Virus record (IMG/VR): IMGVR_UViG_3300042691_022988
DNA length: 20,000 nt
Direction: 5' to 3' (one strand)
From: an uncultured virus (IMG/VR IMGVR_UViG_3300042691_022988)
Taxonomy: Duplodnaviria; Heunggongvirae; Uroviricota; Caudoviricetes
Shown here: one piece after another, positions 3,395-15,219 of the stretch
Layout: every line of letters begins with the position of its first letter
Numbering within the stretch: the stretch's first letter is position 1
Notes under the pieces: generated by a model
What the model saw: the letters and a program-made list of their open reading frames with translations, nothing else
Databases searched by the model: none
What the model was told of the DNA's origin: nothing
Program-made: the position numbers and the translations under genes

Positions 3395-3402
3395 TATATT
3401 TG
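3395..3402 (+). promoter_or_regulatory. Bacteroidetes -7 promoter element
   Basis: TATATTTG upstream of ATG 3418. Confidence 0.6.
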
Positions 3403-3417
3403 CAATATATCAACCAA

Positions 3418-4440
3418 ATGAAAAATAACGTACAAAACTATCGCAACGTACTCAACGATACTCGCGATATAAGCCAAAACAAAAAACTAGAAGAGGAGTG
3501 GAATAAGGCTGAAACCGGGTCTAATCTACAATCTTTTAAAAGAGGTTTCCTGGCGTGGAAGAAAACAAACTCACACAAGGAGCCGGTGAAAAAAGCACGA
3601 TTTAAACCACAAGCAATTGTAAATGCGTTCGAGGATATCATTAATGAGCTGATTCCCGACAGTAATCCATTGGGTCTCCCAGACTCAAAGGAAAACAAGT
3701 ACAGCCCGTATAAATTTCCAACTAATCATAATGATATCCTATTTCTCACCGACATTCACGTACCATATCACAACATTGCTGCCGTCACAGCTGCACTCAA
3801 GTACGGTCTTGAAAATGAGGTCAACACAATCTACATTAACGGGGACCTCATCGACTTCTACGCAATCAGCCGCTTCCAAAAGGATCCGCGAAAAAGGGAC
3901 CTCGCCTCGGAAATCTACATGGCAAGAGACTTCCTCTACACCCTGCGACGATTGTTCCCTACACAAGCAATATACTTCAAAGCAGGAAACCACGACATCC
4001 GTTGGGACCACTATTTAATCAACAATGCCTCAGATCTTGTGGGGATTGAAGAGTTCTCATTGCAATCCATTCTTCACTTGGATAAACTGAACATCACGTT
4101 TATTCCAGACAAACAACTTGTTAGAATGGGTAAGCTAGTAGCCCTTCATGGGCATGAGTTTGGGTCAAGTATGTTTAGCCCAGTAAACATTGCCCGTGGT
4201 CTTTATCTTCGAGCCAAGGATAACGCTATCTGCGGACACCACCACCAGACGTCGGAGCATACCGAGCCAAACATCAACGGAAAGGTAACCACCTGCTGGT
4301 CGGTAGCTTGCCTTTGTGAGCTGCATCCGGACTATATGCCAATTAACAAATTTACACACGGATTTGCACACGTCAAAGTGTTTGATAATGAAGACTTTGA
4401 GGTGACAAACTACCGTATCGTGGATGGTAAGATTAAGTAG
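3418..4440 (+). CDS. Calcineurin-like metallophosphoesterase
   Basis: All five motifs present: TDIH, GDLIDF, GNHD, HGHE, GHHH. Confidence 0.85.
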   Translation: MKNNVQNYRNVLNDTRDISQNKKLEEEWNKAETGSNLQSFKRGFLAWKKTNSHKEPVKKARFKPQAIVNAFEDIINELIPDSNPLGLPDSKENKYSPYKFPTNHNDILFLTDIHVPYHNIAAVTAALKYGLENEVNTIYINGDLIDFYAISRFQKDPRKRDLASEIYMARDFLYTLRRLFPTQAIYFKAGNHDIRWDHYLINNASDLVGIEEFSLQSILHLDKLNITFIPDKQLVRMGKLVALHGHEFGSSMFSPVNIARGLYLRAKDNAICGHHHQTSEHTEPNINGKVTTCWSVACLCELHPDYMPINKFTHGFAHVKVFDNEDFEVTNYRIVDGKIK

Positions 4441-6569: not shown

Positions 6570-6833
6570 TTAACAGTCCCACTTGCGAAGAGCCAGCGCC
6601 TTTCTTGTAGGCTTGCCATTAGGCTTTTTCATCGGACCAGGCATACCTCCCATGCGAGCACAGAAGGATTTACGCCTGGACGCTGCTTTGGGAGACTTCT
6701 TGGCTTGTTTGGCAGATACCGGTGGCTTCAACGTGCCTCCAGTCTCGCGTTTATACGCAGCTCGACCCTTGGCATTCAAACCTCCTTCTGGGTTCTTACC
6801 CTCCTTGCGTTGCCATGCTGGTGACTTTGCCAT
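6570..6833 (-). CDS. Basic phage protein, probably DUF6321 family
   Basis: MAKSPAWQRKEGKNPEGGLNAKGRA...RRKSFCARM...KALALRKWDC, recalled as a widespread aquatic-phage family. The Pfam name is from memory. Confidence 0.8.
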   Translation of the reverse strand: MAKSPAWQRKEGKNPEGGLNAKGRAAYKRETGGTLKPPVSAKQAKKSPKAASRRKSFCARMGGMPGPMKKPNGKPTRKALALRKWDC

Positions 6834-7301
6834 TTATCCCTTTTTTAGATTTTTATTAACACGCTTCACGGTCTTTTTTGCAGATGCGTAATCAAGATTA
6901 TTAGCGGTATAAGAATAACCACCAGAAAGGTTTCTTGTATATCCTGTTTTTTGAGATGGTTTCGCCAAACCCTTTAATTTATTTACCAGTCCCTTATCAA
7001 CTACCTTTTCTTTTGTAGCAGTAGTGCTTGTTTGTTTTTTAGGACCATAACGGTAAATATCAGTTGACGAAGAAGAAAGAGATTTTACCTTTCTAGTAGC
7101 GCCATTTGCGAACTTTTGTTTTGCTTTTACTTTTTTCGTAGATAGATCCTGACCCTTTTCAGTAAGAGCCTTGCGATAAACAGAACGACTTTTTGTAACC
7201 GTACCCTGCGCGTCTACGCTTTTAGATTTGGTAATGGTTTTTTGATTACCACTAAAAGGATTAGTGCGAACTATCGTTTTTTCTTTTGGTTTATTAGCCA
7301 T
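6834..7301 (-). CDS. Lys/Thr/Ser-rich basic protein
   Basis: 155 aa; abuts the downstream gene. Confidence 0.75.
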   Translation of the reverse strand: MANKPKEKTIVRTNPFSGNQKTITKSKSVDAQGTVTKSRSVYRKALTEKGQDLSTKKVKAKQKFANGATRKVKSLSSSSTDIYRYGPKKQTSTTATKEKVVDKGLVNKLKGLAKPSQKTGYTRNLSGGYSYTANNLDYASAKKTVKRVNKNLKKG

Positions 7302-7319
7302 TGTATCTAATTTTTAAAA

Positions 7320-7481
7320 TTATTTTACCTTAGTTGTCCTCATCATCAACTGTCTTTTTGGACCAGATGTAGAGACCTTGGTTGTCTTCATCATTAATTG
7401 TTTTTTAGGAGTTGATGAAGAAACTTTTGTGGTCTTCATCATCAACTTTTTCTTTGGGTCTGGTTGATTTTTCTTGATCAT
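7320..7481 (-). CDS. 53-aa basic protein with three internal repeats
   Basis: MIKKNQPD-PKKKLMMKTTKVSSST-PKKQLMMKTTKVSTSG-PKRQLMMRTTKVK*; ATG is 1 nt after the upstream stop. Confidence 0.7.
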   Translation of the reverse strand: MIKKNQPDPKKKLMMKTTKVSSSTPKKQLMMKTTKVSTSGPKRQLMMRTTKVK

Positions 7482-7482
7482 G

Positions 7483-7632
7483 TTATTTCTTTTTAGCTGT
7501 TTTCTTTGACTGTGCAAATGCCTTTGCCGTAGGTGCGCCCTTCGTTCCGGGCTTCCTCATCTTCTCGCCTGATCCAGCAGCAATTCTCTTGCGCTTGGCG
7601 TTGATGTTTGCGTATAGTCCCTGTTTTGCCAT
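7483..7632 (-). CDS. 49-aa basic phage protein (missed by the ORF track)
   Basis: MAKQGLYANINAKRKRIAAGSGEKMRKPGTKGAPTAKAFAQSKKTAKKK*; TAATG coupling; GLYANI.AKRKRI motif recalled from aquatic phages. Confidence 0.8.
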   Translation of the reverse strand: MAKQGLYANINAKRKRIAAGSGEKMRKPGTKGAPTAKAFAQSKKTAKKK

Positions 7633-7751
7633 TATCCCTGTCCTCTTGTTGGTTTAACATTCTTATCCTTGGGAGACTTGCGCTTAAAGGGCTTGCCCTC
7701 CTTTCTTTTGCCAAAGGTAGTCTTTAATCCGCTTCCTAGTGCCTTTGCCAT
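7632..7751 (-). CDS. 39-aa basic peptide ending RGQG (missed by the ORF track)
   Basis: MAKALGSGLKTTFGKRKEGKPFKRKSPKDKNVKPTRGQG*; TAATG overlaps at both ends. Confidence 0.75.
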   Translation of the reverse strand: MAKALGSGLKTTFGKRKEGKPFKRKSPKDKNVKPTRGQG

Positions 7752-8299
7752 TATTTTTTACCTTTTCGTACTTCTTTTTTAAACGCAGCACGTTGAGAAA
7801 TAGGGTTACTCAAAACGTATTTGCGTGTTTCTTGATTCTTTGCAGAGTTAGCCTCAACCTGGTATGATCTTCCTCCCTTAGTTTTTCCCTTACCGGCAGG
7901 GATTCGAAGATTGCGAGTATGGGCAGTAACGGCTGATTTACGAGATGTCATAGTCTTTTCAACACCACGCTTACCCTCTCCAGAGCGAGTCACAGTCTTG
8001 CGACGAACCATTGATGGAGTAGAAACAACCTTTGTCTTCTTATCAGACGCGCTGTCGTAACCAAACTGCTTTTTTGGGTTAGCAACATTTTTCTCCATCT
8101 GCATCTGACGACGAGGAGTATCCTTACTACGCTCAGTCAAAAATGGCTTGCTTTCCCCCTTACGATACTCTTTGTAAGTCTTCTTATTTAAGCGAGGACC
8201 AGAAACCTCCTTTGACTTGTACTCATAGCCGGAACCGCTCTCCCCGCTACTCTTGGTAACAGTGCGACCCAGTAAGTTTTTTCTGATTTTTTCGGGCAT
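7751..8299 (-). CDS. Basic protein, paralog of 8589-9023
   Basis: MPEKIRKNLLGRTVTKSSG N-terminus; TAATG coupling. Confidence 0.8.
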   Translation of the reverse strand: MPEKIRKNLLGRTVTKSSGESGSGYEYKSKEVSGPRLNKKTYKEYRKGESKPFLTERSKDTPRRQMQMEKNVANPKKQFGYDSASDKKTKVVSTPSMVRRKTVTRSGEGKRGVEKTMTSRKSAVTAHTRNLRIPAGKGKTKGGRSYQVEANSAKNQETRKYVLSNPISQRAAFKKEVRKGKK

Positions 8300-8589
8300 T
8301 ACTTTTTCTTGGTTTTTGACTTTCCGGTTTGTCTTCCAGGAGTCATCATGTTTTGAATTCTTACTTTCTTCTTTTCAAGCTGACCAAGTTTACCCTGGGC
8401 CAGACTCGATTCAGAAACCCCAGTAATTCTACTAGCAGCCCTGTTCAAGTATTCCTCCTTGTTCAGCCCAGCCTGATTAGATTTCAACTTCGATATCTTT
8501 GTTTCAACCTTCTTCAGCTTAGCCTCGTTTCTCTGTTTTAGAGTCTTAGGCTTGGGAAAACTTTTTGAACCGTTTGATCGTGATTTCAT
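8299..8589 (-). CDS. Basic protein
   Basis: 27 of 96 residues are K+R; TAATG coupling. Confidence 0.75.
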   Translation of the reverse strand: MKSRSNGSKSFPKPKTLKQRNEAKLKKVETKISKLKSNQAGLNKEEYLNRAASRITGVSESSLAQGKLGQLEKKKVRIQNMMTPGRQTGKSKTKKK

Positions 8590-9023
8590 TATTTGTTCTT
8601 TTTGATTTGACGACGAAATTCAGCAGCCTGACGCAAAGCGCCCATATTGGTCCTCGTAGAAGTCTCGCCAGGCTTTCTTGTTTCAACCGAACGTACTTTA
8701 CCTGATCTCCCTCTTACTGTTTGTTTTTCAGTAGTAACTCCACCAGATAGTCCTGCCTTACCGACCTTTCTTCTCGTTACATCAGATTTACCAGCTGGAT
8801 AATCGTATTTAATTTTTTCCCTTACAGACTTATTGTTTTCGGACCTTTTCAAAGTACGAACAGTACCATCCGATAGTACCGACTTGGTTTTTGCCTTTAA
8901 CTTTATAGACTCGCCCCTAGAATTTTTAACTAACTTTCTTTTAAATTCTACACCGCTAGAGTTTACTCCAGACGTTTTAGTTACGGTGCGACCTAGCAAG
9001 TTCTTTTTAATTTTTTCTGGCAT
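8589..9023 (-). CDS. Basic protein, paralog of 7751-8299
   Basis: MPEKIKKNLLGRTVTKTSG N-terminus. Confidence 0.8.
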   Translation of the reverse strand: MPEKIKKNLLGRTVTKTSGVNSSGVEFKRKLVKNSRGESIKLKAKTKSVLSDGTVRTLKRSENNKSVREKIKYDYPAGKSDVTRRKVGKAGLSGGVTTEKQTVRGRSGKVRSVETRKPGETSTRTNMGALRQAAEFRRQIKKNK

Positions 9024-9033
9024 ATCCTTATTT

Positions 9034-9357
9034 TTAGAATTTTGATCTCGTTGATGGCGAATGCTTCTCCTTCTCCTTGCGACGGAACTCCTCCATCTCC
9101 TCCTTACGCTTGGCTACCTGCTTAGGCGTTAAAACCTTATTCTTCTCGCCGGTAGAAGCAGACGAAGTCTTTACAGTATAACCCTTCGAACCAGCACCAG
9201 ATCCGCCACCCCCAGTGTCATATGCAGCGCACCCATCCTTACTACAACTCATACTGACCTCCTGGTCCTTAGCGTCCTTCTTCTTTTTCTTCTTCAAGAA
9301 CTGACTCACATAACTGGCGCCAAACATATTGTCGCGATAATCTTGAGATGCTTCCAT
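9034..9357 (-). CDS. Low-complexity charged protein, first gene of the basic operon
   Basis: MEASQDYRDNMFG... The start at 9357 lies just downstream of promoter 9372-9379. Contains a K7 run, CSKDGC and a Gly-rich linker. Confidence 0.7.
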   Translation of the reverse strand: MEASQDYRDNMFGASYVSQFLKKKKKKDAKDQEVSMSCSKDGCAAYDTGGGGSGAGSKGYTVKTSSASTGEKNKVLTPKQVAKRKEEMEEFRRKEKEKHSPSTRSKF

Positions 9358-9371
9358 GGAGCTTTTTTTTA

Positions 9372-9402
9372 CAAATATACACGGATGCACATAATAATCA
9401 AA
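9372..9402 (-). promoter_or_regulatory. Bacteroidetes promoter driving the basic-protein operon
   Basis: Minus strand TTTG-19 nt-TATATTTG. Confidence 0.8.
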
Positions 9403-9523
9403 AAAAATCATAATACCAGGATGGTTGGGAAAATCGTTGACCAACTAGGGTTGGGGTCACCCCCCCCGGCAGGCGGTTACGCGACCCGACCCGAAGTCGA
9501 TTTGGCAACAGGGGTGGGGTACT

Positions 9524-10458: not shown

Positions 10459-10491
10459 TTGATTTAGAACTTAGATATCCCCTTATCTTTG
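10459..10491 (+). promoter_or_regulatory. Putative major early promoter
   Basis: TTG (10459-10461) and TATCTTTG (10484-10491); heads the long + strand gene array. Confidence 0.75.
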
Positions 10492-10496
10492 CCACC

Positions 10497-10971
10497 GTTC
10501 AACGGAACAACGGAGTGCTCAAATCACCCGCAATAGTAATACCTCGTGAGACGTGTGAAATTGAAAGATAGCTAGCAGTTCTGATTCCCTCTCTGCAACA
10601 ATCAAAAGAGGGTGAGCGCTTAGGCAACGAAGCGACGGGAGTTCGCCCGCAAATAGCCGACAACATTCGGCAACCTGTCAGTAGCAAGGTTAGGAGCTAC
10701 AGGTTAAACGAACGAGAACCCTGCAAATAGCAGGGGACTACAAAAGCCGAGTCTTGGGACTATACGCGGTGACCCCTAACGGGAGAGCGGATGAGTACAG
10801 CGGTAAACAAGTAGCACAGCTATGCGTATGTGACAACGTATGGCTGTGTGTATCAATACTACAGCGCAACGGCGCAAATTCAATACAACTATAGCAACGA
10901 CGCATGGTGCGGCAAGCCTAGATGACTGAGGTCGCTAGTCTCGCAGGGGGTTCGAGTCCCCCCGTTGTTCT
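10497..10971 (+). ncRNA. Candidate ~470-nt structured non-coding RNA or leader
   Basis: No + strand ORF in the track. Consecutive hairpins at 10587-10612, 10617-10634, 10636-10649, 10656-10671, 10672-10705, 10719-10735 and 10815-10848. 5' GAACAACGG (10505-10513) is complementary to 3' CCGTTGTTC (10962-10970). Confidence 0.6.
10893..10970 (+). ncRNA. tRNA-like structure 1 (non-canonical, no true anticodon arm)
   Basis: Acceptor AGCAACG/CGTTGTT; mini D-arm CGCA-TGG-TGCG; long arm closed by a TGAG loop; T-arm GGGGG-TTCGAGT-CCCCC; no CCA. Confidence 0.7.
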
Positions 10972-10991
10972 AACACTTAAAACACAACATC

Positions 10992-11471
10992 ATGAACATG
11001 ACAAAAGGCACAGCCTTCGAAGTTGAAATCTTCAAGCAAATGAACTTATCACAGGAAGTAATTGAGCAGCACATATACGACTATGCGCCAATCATGAAAC
11101 TGATACCGCTCACAACTGATGAAATCAGGGAACAGGGTAGAGACTACAACCCTAGAGAATGGGACAGGGTCATTGACAGGATGCTCAACTACAACGGTAT
11201 CAAGTGGTTCAAACGTGACAGGAACGAGAGTTCAAACGGCTACGATGAGTACTTCGCGGTATTCAGCAACAGCGCAGGCGTCAAGGTAATCAATCACGTG
11301 TCATACAGCGCGTCCATGACCAACACTCCGTGGGTCGAGGTTGCTATCGACGAGGACAACATCCTGCACTACAACCGCCGCTCAATTCGCTTCAAGCGCA
11401 ACGACGAGGCTAGGGACTACCTAGCAGAGCAAAGCAAGACAAGCGGTCGCATCTACACGACAATCTTCTGA
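10992..11471 (+). CDS. Early hypothetical protein
   Basis: 159 aa with an A/C-rich leader; its stop TGA abuts hammerhead 1. Confidence 0.8.
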   Translation: MNMTKGTAFEVEIFKQMNLSQEVIEQHIYDYAPIMKLIPLTTDEIREQGRDYNPREWDRVIDRMLNYNGIKWFKRDRNESSNGYDEYFAVFSNSAGVKVINHVSYSASMTNTPWVEVAIDEDNILHYNRRSIRFKRNDEARDYLAEQSKTSGRIYTTIF

Positions 11472-11523
11472 GGTTAACTGATGAGACTTCAATAGTCGAA
11501 ACTGCCTACGGGCAGTCTTAACC
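11472..11523 (+). ncRNA. Type I hammerhead ribozyme 1
   Basis: GGTTAA-CTGATGA-GAC-TTCAATA-GTC-GAA-ACTGCC-TACG-GGCAGT-C-TTAACC. Full catalytic core; GUC cleavage after 11517. Confidence 0.93.
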
Positions 11524-11532
11524 AATAGCAAT

Positions 11533-11694
11533 ATGAAAGCAATCCAATCCCTCGCATCATTCGCAATGGTGCTGTTCTTTTTCCTGAGCACGATAGTCGC
11601 GCCAATGGCCGGCATTTGGTTCTTACTGCCGCTGACTATCCTGTGCCTGAACCTGAGCCTGAACCTATTCGTTCAAATTCATAATTCCAAGTAA
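11533..11694 (+). CDS. 53-aa two-TM membrane protein (missed by the ORF track)
   Basis: MKAIQSLASFAMVLFFFLSTIVAPMAGIWFLLPLTILCLNLSLNLFVQIHNSK*; fills the gap up to ATG 11696. Confidence 0.7.
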   Translation: MKAIQSLASFAMVLFFFLSTIVAPMAGIWFLLPLTILCLNLSLNLFVQIHNSK

Positions 11695-11695
11695 C

Positions 11696-11887
11696 ATGAC
11701 TGAGAAATTCTACTTCCGCAAACTAGGCGGTTGGCCGTTCGAAATGGAGGCCACAATCAACGATGGCCGCCACCGAGCAAACTTCCTAGCGGCCATGAAG
11801 CGCAAGCGTTTCATACAGGTCGACGAGGCCGAGTACATCAAGGACAGCAGACTGCGCTCGATGTACGCATCAATGTTCCACAAGTAA
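11696..11887 (+). CDS. Early hypothetical protein
   Basis: 63 aa, coupled to the upstream stop. Confidence 0.7.
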   Translation: MTEKFYFRKLGGWPFEMEATINDGRHRANFLAAMKRKRFIQVDEAEYIKDSRLRSMYASMFHK

Positions 11888-11906
11888 TCAATAAACAGTA
11901 ATCGAT

Positions 11907-12233
11907 ATGACAACACAAGAATTCATTCAGCAAATGGGCAAGATGCCTGTTGCAAACTACAACGACGGCACAATTCACTTCGAGAATGGCCTCGAAATCA
12001 GCCACAGCGTTAAGCTAGCAGAATGGCAAGGCGACTTGCCTCTGCAAATGGTCGTGCGGGTATCTTTCCAAGGCGACTACGTTATGACGTGGGGCGCTGA
12101 GACTGACGAAGACAATCGACAGCTAGTGTATATGTGGCGCACGTTGAAAAGCCGCGCACAGGAGCGTTCAAAGGACATACAGCAGTACAACTCCCGTACA
12201 GGTTACGAACTGCTCATGAAGGGGCTGCAATAG
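11907..12233 (+). CDS. Early hypothetical protein
   Basis: 108 aa; its stop TAG overlaps hammerhead 2. Confidence 0.8.
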   Translation: MTTQEFIQQMGKMPVANYNDGTIHFENGLEISHSVKLAEWQGDLPLQMVVRVSFQGDYVMTWGAETDEDNRQLVYMWRTLKSRAQERSKDIQQYNSRTGYELLMKGLQ

Positions 12234-12291
12234 GTAAACTGATGAGGCTTCAATAGCCGAAACCACGGGGCTTGCCCCTGTGGTCTTTACC
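12233..12291 (+). ncRNA. Type I hammerhead ribozyme 2
   Basis: GGTAAA-CTGATGA-GGC-TTCAATA-GCC-GAA-ACCACGGGG-CTTG-CCCCTGTGGT-C-TTTACC. GUC cleavage after 12285; stems covary with copy 1. Confidence 0.93.
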
Positions 12292-12303
12292 AATACTAAC
12301 GAT

Positions 12304-12588
12304 ATGAAAGCAACAATCGAAATCACGTCGACCTACGGGTTCGACCACTATTGGACACTAGTGTGTTCAACACCTAAGACAACCAAGAGTTTCTACCTAG
12401 GACAGGACTGCAAATTCTGCGAACGAATACTAGGTATGAATACTGCGTGGGTTGCCCGCGAGATTGGCACGAACAGGCTCGACACCGAGGCAGGCCGCGA
12501 GAAACTAGCCAAGTACATCTGCTCTACGCTAGGCATCAACGGACGTACAATGAAACAATATCAATCATGGTCGCTCTGCGCCCAATAA
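12304..12588 (+). CDS. Early hypothetical protein
   Basis: True start is likely ATG 12304 (MKATIEIT...), because the GTG at 12280 lies inside the ribozyme. Confidence 0.8.
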   Translation: MKATIEITSTYGFDHYWTLVCSTPKTTKSFYLGQDCKFCERILGMNTAWVAREIGTNRLDTEAGREKLAKYICSTLGINGRTMKQYQSWSLCAQ

Positions 12589-14605: not shown

Positions 14606-14787
14606 AGCACACACTTCGAATTGAGCCACTCCTTTGGCTCGCCTACATCGCTGCAATCATTACAGCAGCCGTACTCATGAGTTCATGCAGTACCTCACGT
14701 CGAAACAACTACCAAGACCATCTCCGATCGACCCCGACTGAAAACTGGGTGCGCCACGATAATGGTGGATGTGGTTGGCACAACTAA
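14602..14787 (+). CDS. Small putative lipoprotein
   Basis: Hydrophobic stretch followed by a lipobox-like LMSSC; ATGA overlap. Confidence 0.65.
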   Translation: MKHTLRIEPLLWLAYIAAIITAAVLMSSCSTSRRNNYQDHLRSTPTENWVRHDNGGCGWHN

Positions 14788-14830
14788 CATGGCTATGGAG
14801 CAAGCAGGGGTTCGAGTCCCCTGCCATGTT
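14787..14830 (+). ncRNA. tRNA-like structure 2 (44-nt acceptor plus T-arm minihelix)
   Basis: ACATGGC/GCCATGT 7-bp acceptor; TATGGAGCAAGC linker; AGGGG-TTCGAGT-CCCCT T-arm; begins at the upstream stop codon. Confidence 0.7.
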
Positions 14831-14862
14831 CTCTGCTCACAGCAGGCTCGTAATGCAACGAG

Positions 14863-14900
14863 AGGAGGGGAGCGGCAACGGCTGCACCCTCCTTATTTTA
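14863..14900 (+). terminator. Possible terminator or structured element
   Basis: AGGAGGG...CCCTCCT followed by TATTTT. Confidence 0.4.
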
Positions 14901-14934
14901 ACATCTCTTAACAAGTGTAATTTAAACTTTAATA

Positions 14935-14942
14935 TACTTTTG
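14935..14942 (+). promoter_or_regulatory. Bacteroidetes -7 element
   Basis: TACTTTTG before ATG 14965. Confidence 0.55.
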
Positions 14943-14964
14943 TACCACTTAAAACAACAGCAAC

Positions 14965-15219
14965 ATGACGCAAGAGCAAATCAAACGCAGGCTTTTATTC
15001 ATCATCGATGACGCGAGCCGTTTACTTCACCACCTAGAGTCAGGCAAGGACATGAGCGAATTCACGGGCTTTGCTGACGATGGGTATACACACCTGTCAA
15101 ACATCCAAATCGCAGCAGACCTAGAGGACACGGAGTCTGACGTGTGGAAGAACGTACACTCCATGGATGCAGAAACCTTAGAACTTGTAACACTTAATTT
15201 TTCAAAAAGCAAAATATGA
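14965..15219 (+). CDS. Hypothetical protein
   Basis: 84 aa with an A/C-rich leader. Confidence 0.75.
   Translation: MTQEQIKRRLLFIIDDASRLLHHLESGKDMSEFTGFADDGYTHLSNIQIAADLEDTESDVWKNVHSMDAETLELVTLNFSKSKI

Follow-up and report, generated by a model that had tools for sequence, protein, structure and literature searches.

Two hammerhead ribozymes of type I within the early region of this phage genome probably act as punctuation, by which an early polycistronic transcript of a Bacteroidota-type phage would be divided into separate linear mRNAs. The 768-nt RNA with three small genes that lies between the two predicted cut sites would be merely the middle piece of this transcript. The initial annotation had proposed that double cleavage releases this RNA and that the RNA can circularise. 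The release is well founded, while the proposed circularisation fared poorly: the three-gene unit is not conserved, and contigs that are mainly DNA hold no circle junction.

The window (the whole stretch of 20,000 nucleotides that was analysed) belongs to a DNA phage genome, as indicated by domain and profile matches to phage-type genes (a primase/helicase, a single metallophosphoesterase, a Cas4-like exonuclease and a NinB-like protein). A rightward run of small ORFs without assigned function starts at about 10500, behind a copy of TAnnTTTG at 10484; further copies lie at 14935 and 17082, and the window holds 13 + strand matches in total. We take TAnnTTTG to be the −7 promoter element of Bacteroidota. 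Since this motif occurs together with A-rich leaders, a Bacteroidota-type host is suggested as a candidate. A hammerhead of the same family is also present in a Mucilaginibacter genome, and a sigma-70 promoter scan gave matches at chance level. The features concerned are the following.

10484..10491, + strand: TAnnTTTG, a candidate −7 promoter element of Bacteroidota type at the head of the early block that runs rightward (function suggested by position)
10896..10970, + strand: tRNA-like element 1, a 7-bp acceptor-like stem stacked on a T-arm; the first start codon follows after 22 nt; candidate site of RNase P/Z processing (stem search)
10992..11471, + strand: ORF a, 159 aa, the upstream gene; its stop codon abuts hammerhead 1 (ORF list)
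11472..11523, + strand: hammerhead 1 (HH1), type I with a stem I of 6 bp; would cut after 11517, 15 nt 5' of the next ATG (structural scan, fold)
11518..12285, + strand: predicted double-cleavage product, 768 nt, with a 5'-OH and a 2',3'-cyclic phosphate, and with a 3' end that retains stems II and III of hammerhead 2 (expected from hammerhead chemistry)
11533..11694, + strand: ORF b, 53 aa, hydrophobic (ORF list)
11696..11887, + strand: ORF c, 63 aa (ORF list)
11907..12233, + strand: ORF d, 108 aa; its stop codon overlaps the first base of stem I of hammerhead 2 (ORF list)
12233..12291, + strand: hammerhead 2 (HH2), type I with a stem I of 6 bp; would cut after 12285, 18 nt 5' of the next ATG (structural scan, fold)
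12304..12588, + strand: ORF e, 94 aa from its ATG, first gene of the downstream piece (ORF list)
14787..14829, + strand: tRNA-like element with a minimal acceptor stem and T-arm, ending the small-gene block ahead of hairpins and of TAnnTTTG at 14935 (stem search)

Both motifs have the CUGANGA core, GAAA, an NUH triplet and three stems with stem I open, as type I requires, and neither core deviates. In HH1, stem I pairs 11472-11477 with 11518-11523 and encloses the core CUGAUGA at 11478, a 4-bp stem II, GAAA, stem III and GUC at 11515-11517. In HH2, stem I pairs 12233-12238 with 12286-12291, the core starts at 12239 and GUC lies at 12283-12285. The hammerhead is the minimum-energy fold of each isolated motif (−17.5 kcal/mol for HH1 and −24.2 kcal/mol for HH2). 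Six core-like matches came out of a permissive scan of the window on both strands, and all three stems close in just two of them, HH1 and HH2; the scans of both strands found no minus-strand hammerhead in the window. Each hammerhead begins at the stop codon of the preceding gene. The two are 91% identical over 32 nt, and this 32-nt core is the sole repeat at the borders of the unit. Judged from sequence, HH1 and HH2 are genuine self-cutting hammerheads with predicted cleavage. The annotation was thus accurate in placing two same-strand, type I hammerheads with perfect cores around 11518-12285 and three complete ORFs between them, and the 5'-OH and 2',3'-cyclic phosphate ends that it assigned to the released RNA are well supported by analogy with hammerhead chemistry.

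Neither motif is detected at the Rfam gathering thresholds. The match to RAGATH-1-hammerhead (RF03152) is weak, with E values of 0.055 and 3.4 and scores of 31.1 and 23 bits, below the gathering score of 56.3. The type I topology, the core and the sequence around stem II resemble this model, whereas stem II is a complete 4-bp helix with a 5-nt loop in the present motifs and minimal in the model. Among the points against punctuation are two from this locus. In wider sequence context, the outer pairs of stem I form with P 0.15-0.36 in HH1, which has competing folds, and with P 0.6-0.9 in HH2, in a fold model that has no tertiary contacts. The one metatranscriptome contig over HH2 (run X5, 12207-12464) passes uncut through the cut site; it is either DNA or uncut RNA.

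The family to which HH1 and HH2 belong is widespread. A shared-core pattern search of viral contigs gave 110 stretches, and a structural scan of these and of the window gave 198 matches. We kept 196, of which 124 are distinct, and dropped one that was cut by the contig end (L003) and one spurious match (L067). Stem I is exactly 6 bp long in 118 of the 124 distinct hammerheads, and its pairs 2-5 each show three to six pair types, so the stems are backed by covariation. Among 142 cores chosen blind to stem I (after exclusion of 8 cores without a downstream stem III), 134 pair at all six positions, one fails at pair 6 alone, and the remaining seven either close wrongly or are not of type I. The final loop II base and position 1.7, which is the seventh base 3' of the cut, form U-A in 104, A-U in 17 and G-A in 3 of the 124; counted by distinct types, without correction for kinship, these are 46, 9 and 3 of 58. 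Since stem I pair types vary and loop II covaries with position 1.7, the family motifs are, on sequence evidence, under selection as active ribozymes. In an activity-raising tertiary contact described for hammerheads, a U at position 1.7 pairs with an A of loop II (PMC9217987); the U-A form here would be the reverse of that contact, if the two are equivalent. U-U and A-A do not occur at these positions among the 124 family hammerheads (L001-L110). In a contig labelled as an archaeal MAG, the core pattern occurs without a closing stem I near tRNA-like arms (L119:2533).

The placement of these hammerheads indicates where the constraint falls. In 108 of the 124 distinct hammerheads, an ORF of at least 35 aa starts 10-35 nt 3' of the cut, compared with 17% of random positions, so the constraint falls on the 5' end of the downstream RNA. 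Many family members have no partner nearby: 31 of 53 non-redundant loci contain one type I motif, and the other 22 contain 2-10. Fifteen single motifs have at least 3 kb on both sides, and 14 of them remain single after a scan for types II and III, with three type III motifs added in L065; a weak type III match in L022 was judged spurious and would lower the count to 13 of 15. No other ribozyme was found at Rfam gathering in 13 of the 15 single-hammerhead loci, and an E-value scan of seven loci of the clade gave nothing beyond weak RAGATH-1 matches on known motifs; both scans are insensitive because Rfam misses the family with the 6-bp stem I. Neighbouring hammerheads are 175 to 2566 nt apart, and none of 80 loci has type I motifs on both strands. 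The type I arrays (10 motifs in L031, 8 in L143, 7 in L026 and 5 in L018) stand nearly all directly before start codons, and types I and III are mixed in L010, L014, L031 and L065.

A second kind of element occupies similar positions in this clade. The tRNA-like elements, which consist of a 7-bp acceptor-like stem and a T-arm without CCA, lie mostly 21-25 nt before start codons, with up to four per relative (L111:3953, L123:832, L126:747, L137:490 and 767, L144:1511 and 1760). In L111-L113, one stands immediately before the ORF d homologue, and the element at 14787-14829 is conserved in L122-L127 and L142. ARAGORN did not detect these elements. Their stems vary across relatives in a compensatory way; pairing of the T-stem was a condition of the search, and thus just the variety of pairs counts. 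The downstream RNAs predicted from these elements start much like hammerhead products. Early RNase III sites of T7 are intergenic structures that define mRNA ends and are cut by a host enzyme. In plant mitochondria, t-elements are likewise described as structures between the genes of a polycistronic transcript that set mRNA ends (PMC1920247). Those are cut by host enzymes, whereas hammerheads are self-cleaving; the present tRNA-like elements are similar to t-elements and may, by analogy, be cut by RNase Z or P (PMC1920247).

In the reading we favour, host polymerase would start near 10498, and the tRNA-like element and the two hammerheads would be the sites at which the early transcript is cut. 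Each hammerhead would cut once during transcription, after which its short, AU-rich 6-bp stem I would separate. The outcome would be separate linear mRNAs (piece a, piece b-c-d, and a piece from e onward) with short, defined 5'-OH leaders, and each hammerhead-cut piece would end 3' in two hairpins and a cyclic phosphate. Such processing would presumably tune the stability and translation of early genes, the gene content of the 768-nt piece being an accident of gene shuffling. A 5'-OH lacks the monophosphate that speeds RNase E (PMC3997798), and the 768-nt piece may therefore be stabilised without ligation by this end together with its 3' hairpins and cyclic phosphate. The protection is not general, as RNase J1 degrades the glmS ribozyme product (PMC3997798). 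The repeats probably double as recombination points for gene swaps, for which PeSL cassettes offer a precedent (PMC2839356). We favour linear punctuation because of the start-codon spacing, the 6-bp stem I and the loop II covariation, and because no partner is needed, given the many single loci and the well-flanked singles that stay single. The tRNA-like elements at a similar distance before start codons, the arrays that mix types I and III, and the lack of the unit in complete genomes of the clade argue in the same direction, as does the report of cluster cleavage without detected circles by Perreault et al. in 2011 (PMC3088659).

The relatives speak against a conserved three-gene unit. Ten were counted as independent: the G002 type (L111-L113), G003 (L114, L123, L141), G004 (L046, L122), L124, L126, L127, L137, L142, L144 and L145. 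Five records that are 99.9-100% identical to the window (L130, L131, L146, L147, L121) were not counted as independent; L125, in which the early block is not covered, and the distant L128 and L129 were left out. The nearest record, G001, stops at window position 10587. In none of the ten independent relatives do hammerheads bracket b, c and d. Three have no hammerhead (the complete genome G002, L126 and the fragment L124), five have one (among them the complete genome G003 and the short contigs L144 and L145), and two have two hammerheads around other genes. Relatives retain homologues of ORFs b, c and d as open frames, at 92%, 42-56% and 48-96% identity, respectively, whereas ORF a is swapped for other genes. 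In G003, with its single hammerhead, b, c and d are dispersed over 2.2 kb with other genes between them, and its ORF b homologue (92% identical, in L114) has no hammerhead upstream. The ORF c homologue lies directly 3' of a hammerhead in L144, and the hammerhead keeps its place after ORF d in L114 and L145. A contig of run X2 contains 11471-12300 whole, with 38 differences and 16 gaps, attached to a different upstream gene, and the block is therefore stable at strain level. On this sequence comparison, the unit is not conserved among relatives and the flanked genes differ between phages. ORFs b, c and d have no match in Pfam or PHROGs, and ORF d has no usable Atlas match.

The layout has been known in phages since 2011, and this locus is one more example of it. 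Perreault et al. described hammerhead clusters that flank prophage genes and cleave in vitro and in E. coli, and proposed shorter mRNAs as the result (PMC3088659). As in the present phages, several same-strand hammerheads there border individual genes or short blocks whose identity is not constant, and one haloviral hammerhead cuts 13 nt before a start codon (PMC3088659). The present case differs in the new phage, in a compact type I family whose 6-bp stem I falls below Rfam thresholds, and, apparently, in the alternation with tRNA-like elements; Dataset S1 of that study may already include the family. The purpose of hammerheads in phage genomes was described as still undefined in a 2019 review (PMC6765202), and a 2026 paper reports that ribozyme cleavage aids translation in fungal and plant RNA viruses (PMC13725137).

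A circular fate of the RNA was weighed at two levels. It is improbable that the 768-nt piece is sealed by host RtcB into a stable circular mRNA useful to the phage, with the A-A mismatch shielding the junction from re-cleavage. The broader version is equally doubtful: that some hammerhead-bounded early messages, the 768-nt one included, are sealed by RtcB into persistent, translated, circular polycistronic mRNAs, with stem I matching kept for end-finding. Low-level circles as by-products are conceivable, if rather unlikely, and would not by themselves make the functional-circle model true. If that model were true, this would be a natural circular mRNA with a function, made by a DNA phage in a bacterial cell. 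The hammerhead end chemistry is right for RtcB, whereas RNase Z/P-type ends would not be RtcB substrates. The suggested search for rtcB found the gene in a Bacteroides control genome but in none of six related phage records, and a PF09414 ligase is absent from five. RtcB circularises 30-80% of retrozyme monomers in vitro, and self-ligation of retrozyme RNAs amounts to 1-3% (PMC7229834).

The two ends can indeed pair as a hybrid stem I with five of six pairs and an A-A mismatch at pair 3. The claim that this stem juxtaposes the ends is plausible for its outer part: in the linear fragment, the outer three pairs form with P 0.6-0.7 and an interrupted extension with P 0.5-0.6, above 11 of 12 interior-shuffled controls. 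In the X1/X2 strain, the sequence that carries the extension is different. The two core-proximal pairs form with P of just 0.05-0.07, and joining by reverse hammerhead chemistry is therefore unlikely. The notion that the mismatch slows re-cleavage fails as a rule, because in 19 of 48 adjacent pairs the junction would again be a fully competent hammerhead and re-cut; a lone mismatch at pair 3 occurs in none of the 142 blind cores.

Matching between neighbours is nevertheless higher than between loci. Adjacent hammerheads give five or six hybrid pairs in 36 of 48 cases, with a mean of 5.02 versus 3.75 between loci, and beat shuffled order (p 0.032). Likeness at stem I positions 2-5 is 0.76 within and 0.40 between genomes, compared with 0.42 and 0.30 for stem III and 0.49 and 0.40 for the leader. 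However, the circle type scores no better than non-adjacent pairs (5.16) or a splice-type hybrid (5.17), and the adjacency signal, which stem II (p 0.017) and loop II (p 0.006) show just as strongly, is lost without L031 (p 0.13) or L014 (p 0.11). A signal that extends to stem II and loop II and hangs on two loci indicates local duplication. In 14 pairs of related single-hammerhead phages, stem I is kept at 0.82 and stem III at 0.69, so slow change explains part of the within-genome likeness, which the punctuation reading accounts for just indirectly. The 3' strand of HH1 forms at least five pairs with 39 of 122 hammerheads of other loci (32%), and the 5' strand of HH2 with 66 of 122 (54%). 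We therefore rejected the hybrid stem I as a sign of selection: five of six pairs are common by chance within the family, and stem II and loop II show the adjacency effect too.

The back-junction that joins 12285 to 11518 had 0 matches in metagenome contigs and 0 in viral contigs, both assembled and mainly DNA. Contigs of four of the six runs listed (X1, X2, X5 and X6) contain one joint elsewhere (10709-10861) and none at this junction. X1 and X2 are probably DNA; X5 and X6 cover 5% of the words, with a single short contig apiece, a coverage so small that they give no evidence on expression or habitat. The retention of the whole block in the X2 contig with another upstream gene would suit a functional circle; the bracketing of the three genes in none of the ten independent relatives and the many family members without a nearby partner do not. 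An exonuclease-resistant circular mRNA, as the annotation had envisaged, thus lacks a junction in the contig collections (mainly DNA) and in the contigs of four runs, an RtcB in six related phage records and a conserved unit. Circles have been raised before for clustered phage hammerheads, with spliced or circular products reported as not detected, data not shown (PMC3088659). The main text of a survey of viroid-like circles does not contain the word "phage" (10.1101/2022.07.19.500677). The literature searched, which excluded most subscription papers, contained no case of a natural circular mRNA that a phage makes by means of ribozymes. For a circle, rolling translation was also rejected, since 768 is divisible by 3 yet stops close all three frames.

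Retrozymes likewise have two same-orientation hammerheads and RtcB-compatible ends, and 768 nt lies within the 600-800 nt of plant circles (PMC7229834). Unlike the non-coding repeats of retrozymes, the present unit is protein-coding and single-copy, has no tandem repeats or LTRs and belongs to a bacterial host; HH1 and HH2 differ in stem I, the fold is modestly stable (z −1.9), and five related records have no reverse transcriptase, by which retro-mobility was rejected. It also differs from viroid-like circular replicons in its location inside a DNA phage operon, the lack of a minus-strand hammerhead and the same modest fold.

It is also unlikely that the hammerhead-plus-leader repeats persist mainly as DNA recombination cassettes that shuffle early genes, possibly through DNA mini-circles, with RNA cleavage secondary. 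PeSL cassettes of T4-type phages are a close precedent, since they recur between genes as expression cassettes of a hypervariable early region, at gene-swap borders; they are promoter-terminator units and form DNA circles, whereas the cassette here is a ribozyme with a leader (PMC2839356). The genes around the elements come in scrambled order in relatives, and loose ends of related contigs fall at element borders (10973, 11470-11471, 12231 and 12264); clade genes are, on the other hand, also shuffled at element-free gaps. The single hammerhead L046:6041 (= L122:5821) joins an HH2-like stem I/II to an HH1-like stem III, as recombination between two copies would give, and HH1 and HH2 are 91% identical over 32 nt, but many phages hold one copy. 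The compensatory changes in stem I and the covariation of loop II with position 1.7 point to selection on the RNA fold rather than on DNA identity, and hybrid-junction DNA was not found in metagenome or viral contigs. A DNA-cassette role is compatible with linear punctuation as a side effect.

Least likely is a decay timer or translation-coupled switch, in which cleavage would open the downstream RNA to a 5' exonuclease as for glmS and a ribosome at the abutting stop may gate folding: RNase J1 degrades a 5'-OH ribozyme product (PMC3997798), both hammerheads begin at a stop codon and HH1 has competing folds, but a fixed leader of 10-35 nt and arrays of up to 10 before successive genes fit translatable pieces better than destruction.

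Linear punctuation can be pursued well in this clade: as the number of hammerheads varies from zero to two among close relatives, with tRNA-like elements at equivalent positions, the clade is a handy test bed in which the two kinds of end are comparable gene for gene. Several further observations concern the surroundings of the operon. The 478-nt non-coding leader at 10498-10975, which ends in the tRNA-like element, folds better than 100 of 100 shuffles (z −3.4) and is 98% identical in L114 and 74% in L046; it is a candidate structured RNA with no Rfam match. After the last tRNA-like element, 14830-14965 contains conserved hairpins (weak RT-9 match, E 0.69) and the TAnnTTTG copy at 14935, and is likely a terminator-promoter border. 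The metallophosphoesterase at 3400-4440 is calcineurin-like, and an action on cyclic phosphate RNA ends would be speculation. On the minus strand, 6570-9444 holds a run of small, very lysine-/arginine-rich ORFs with common N-terminal words (e.g., 7751-8299 and 8589-9023).
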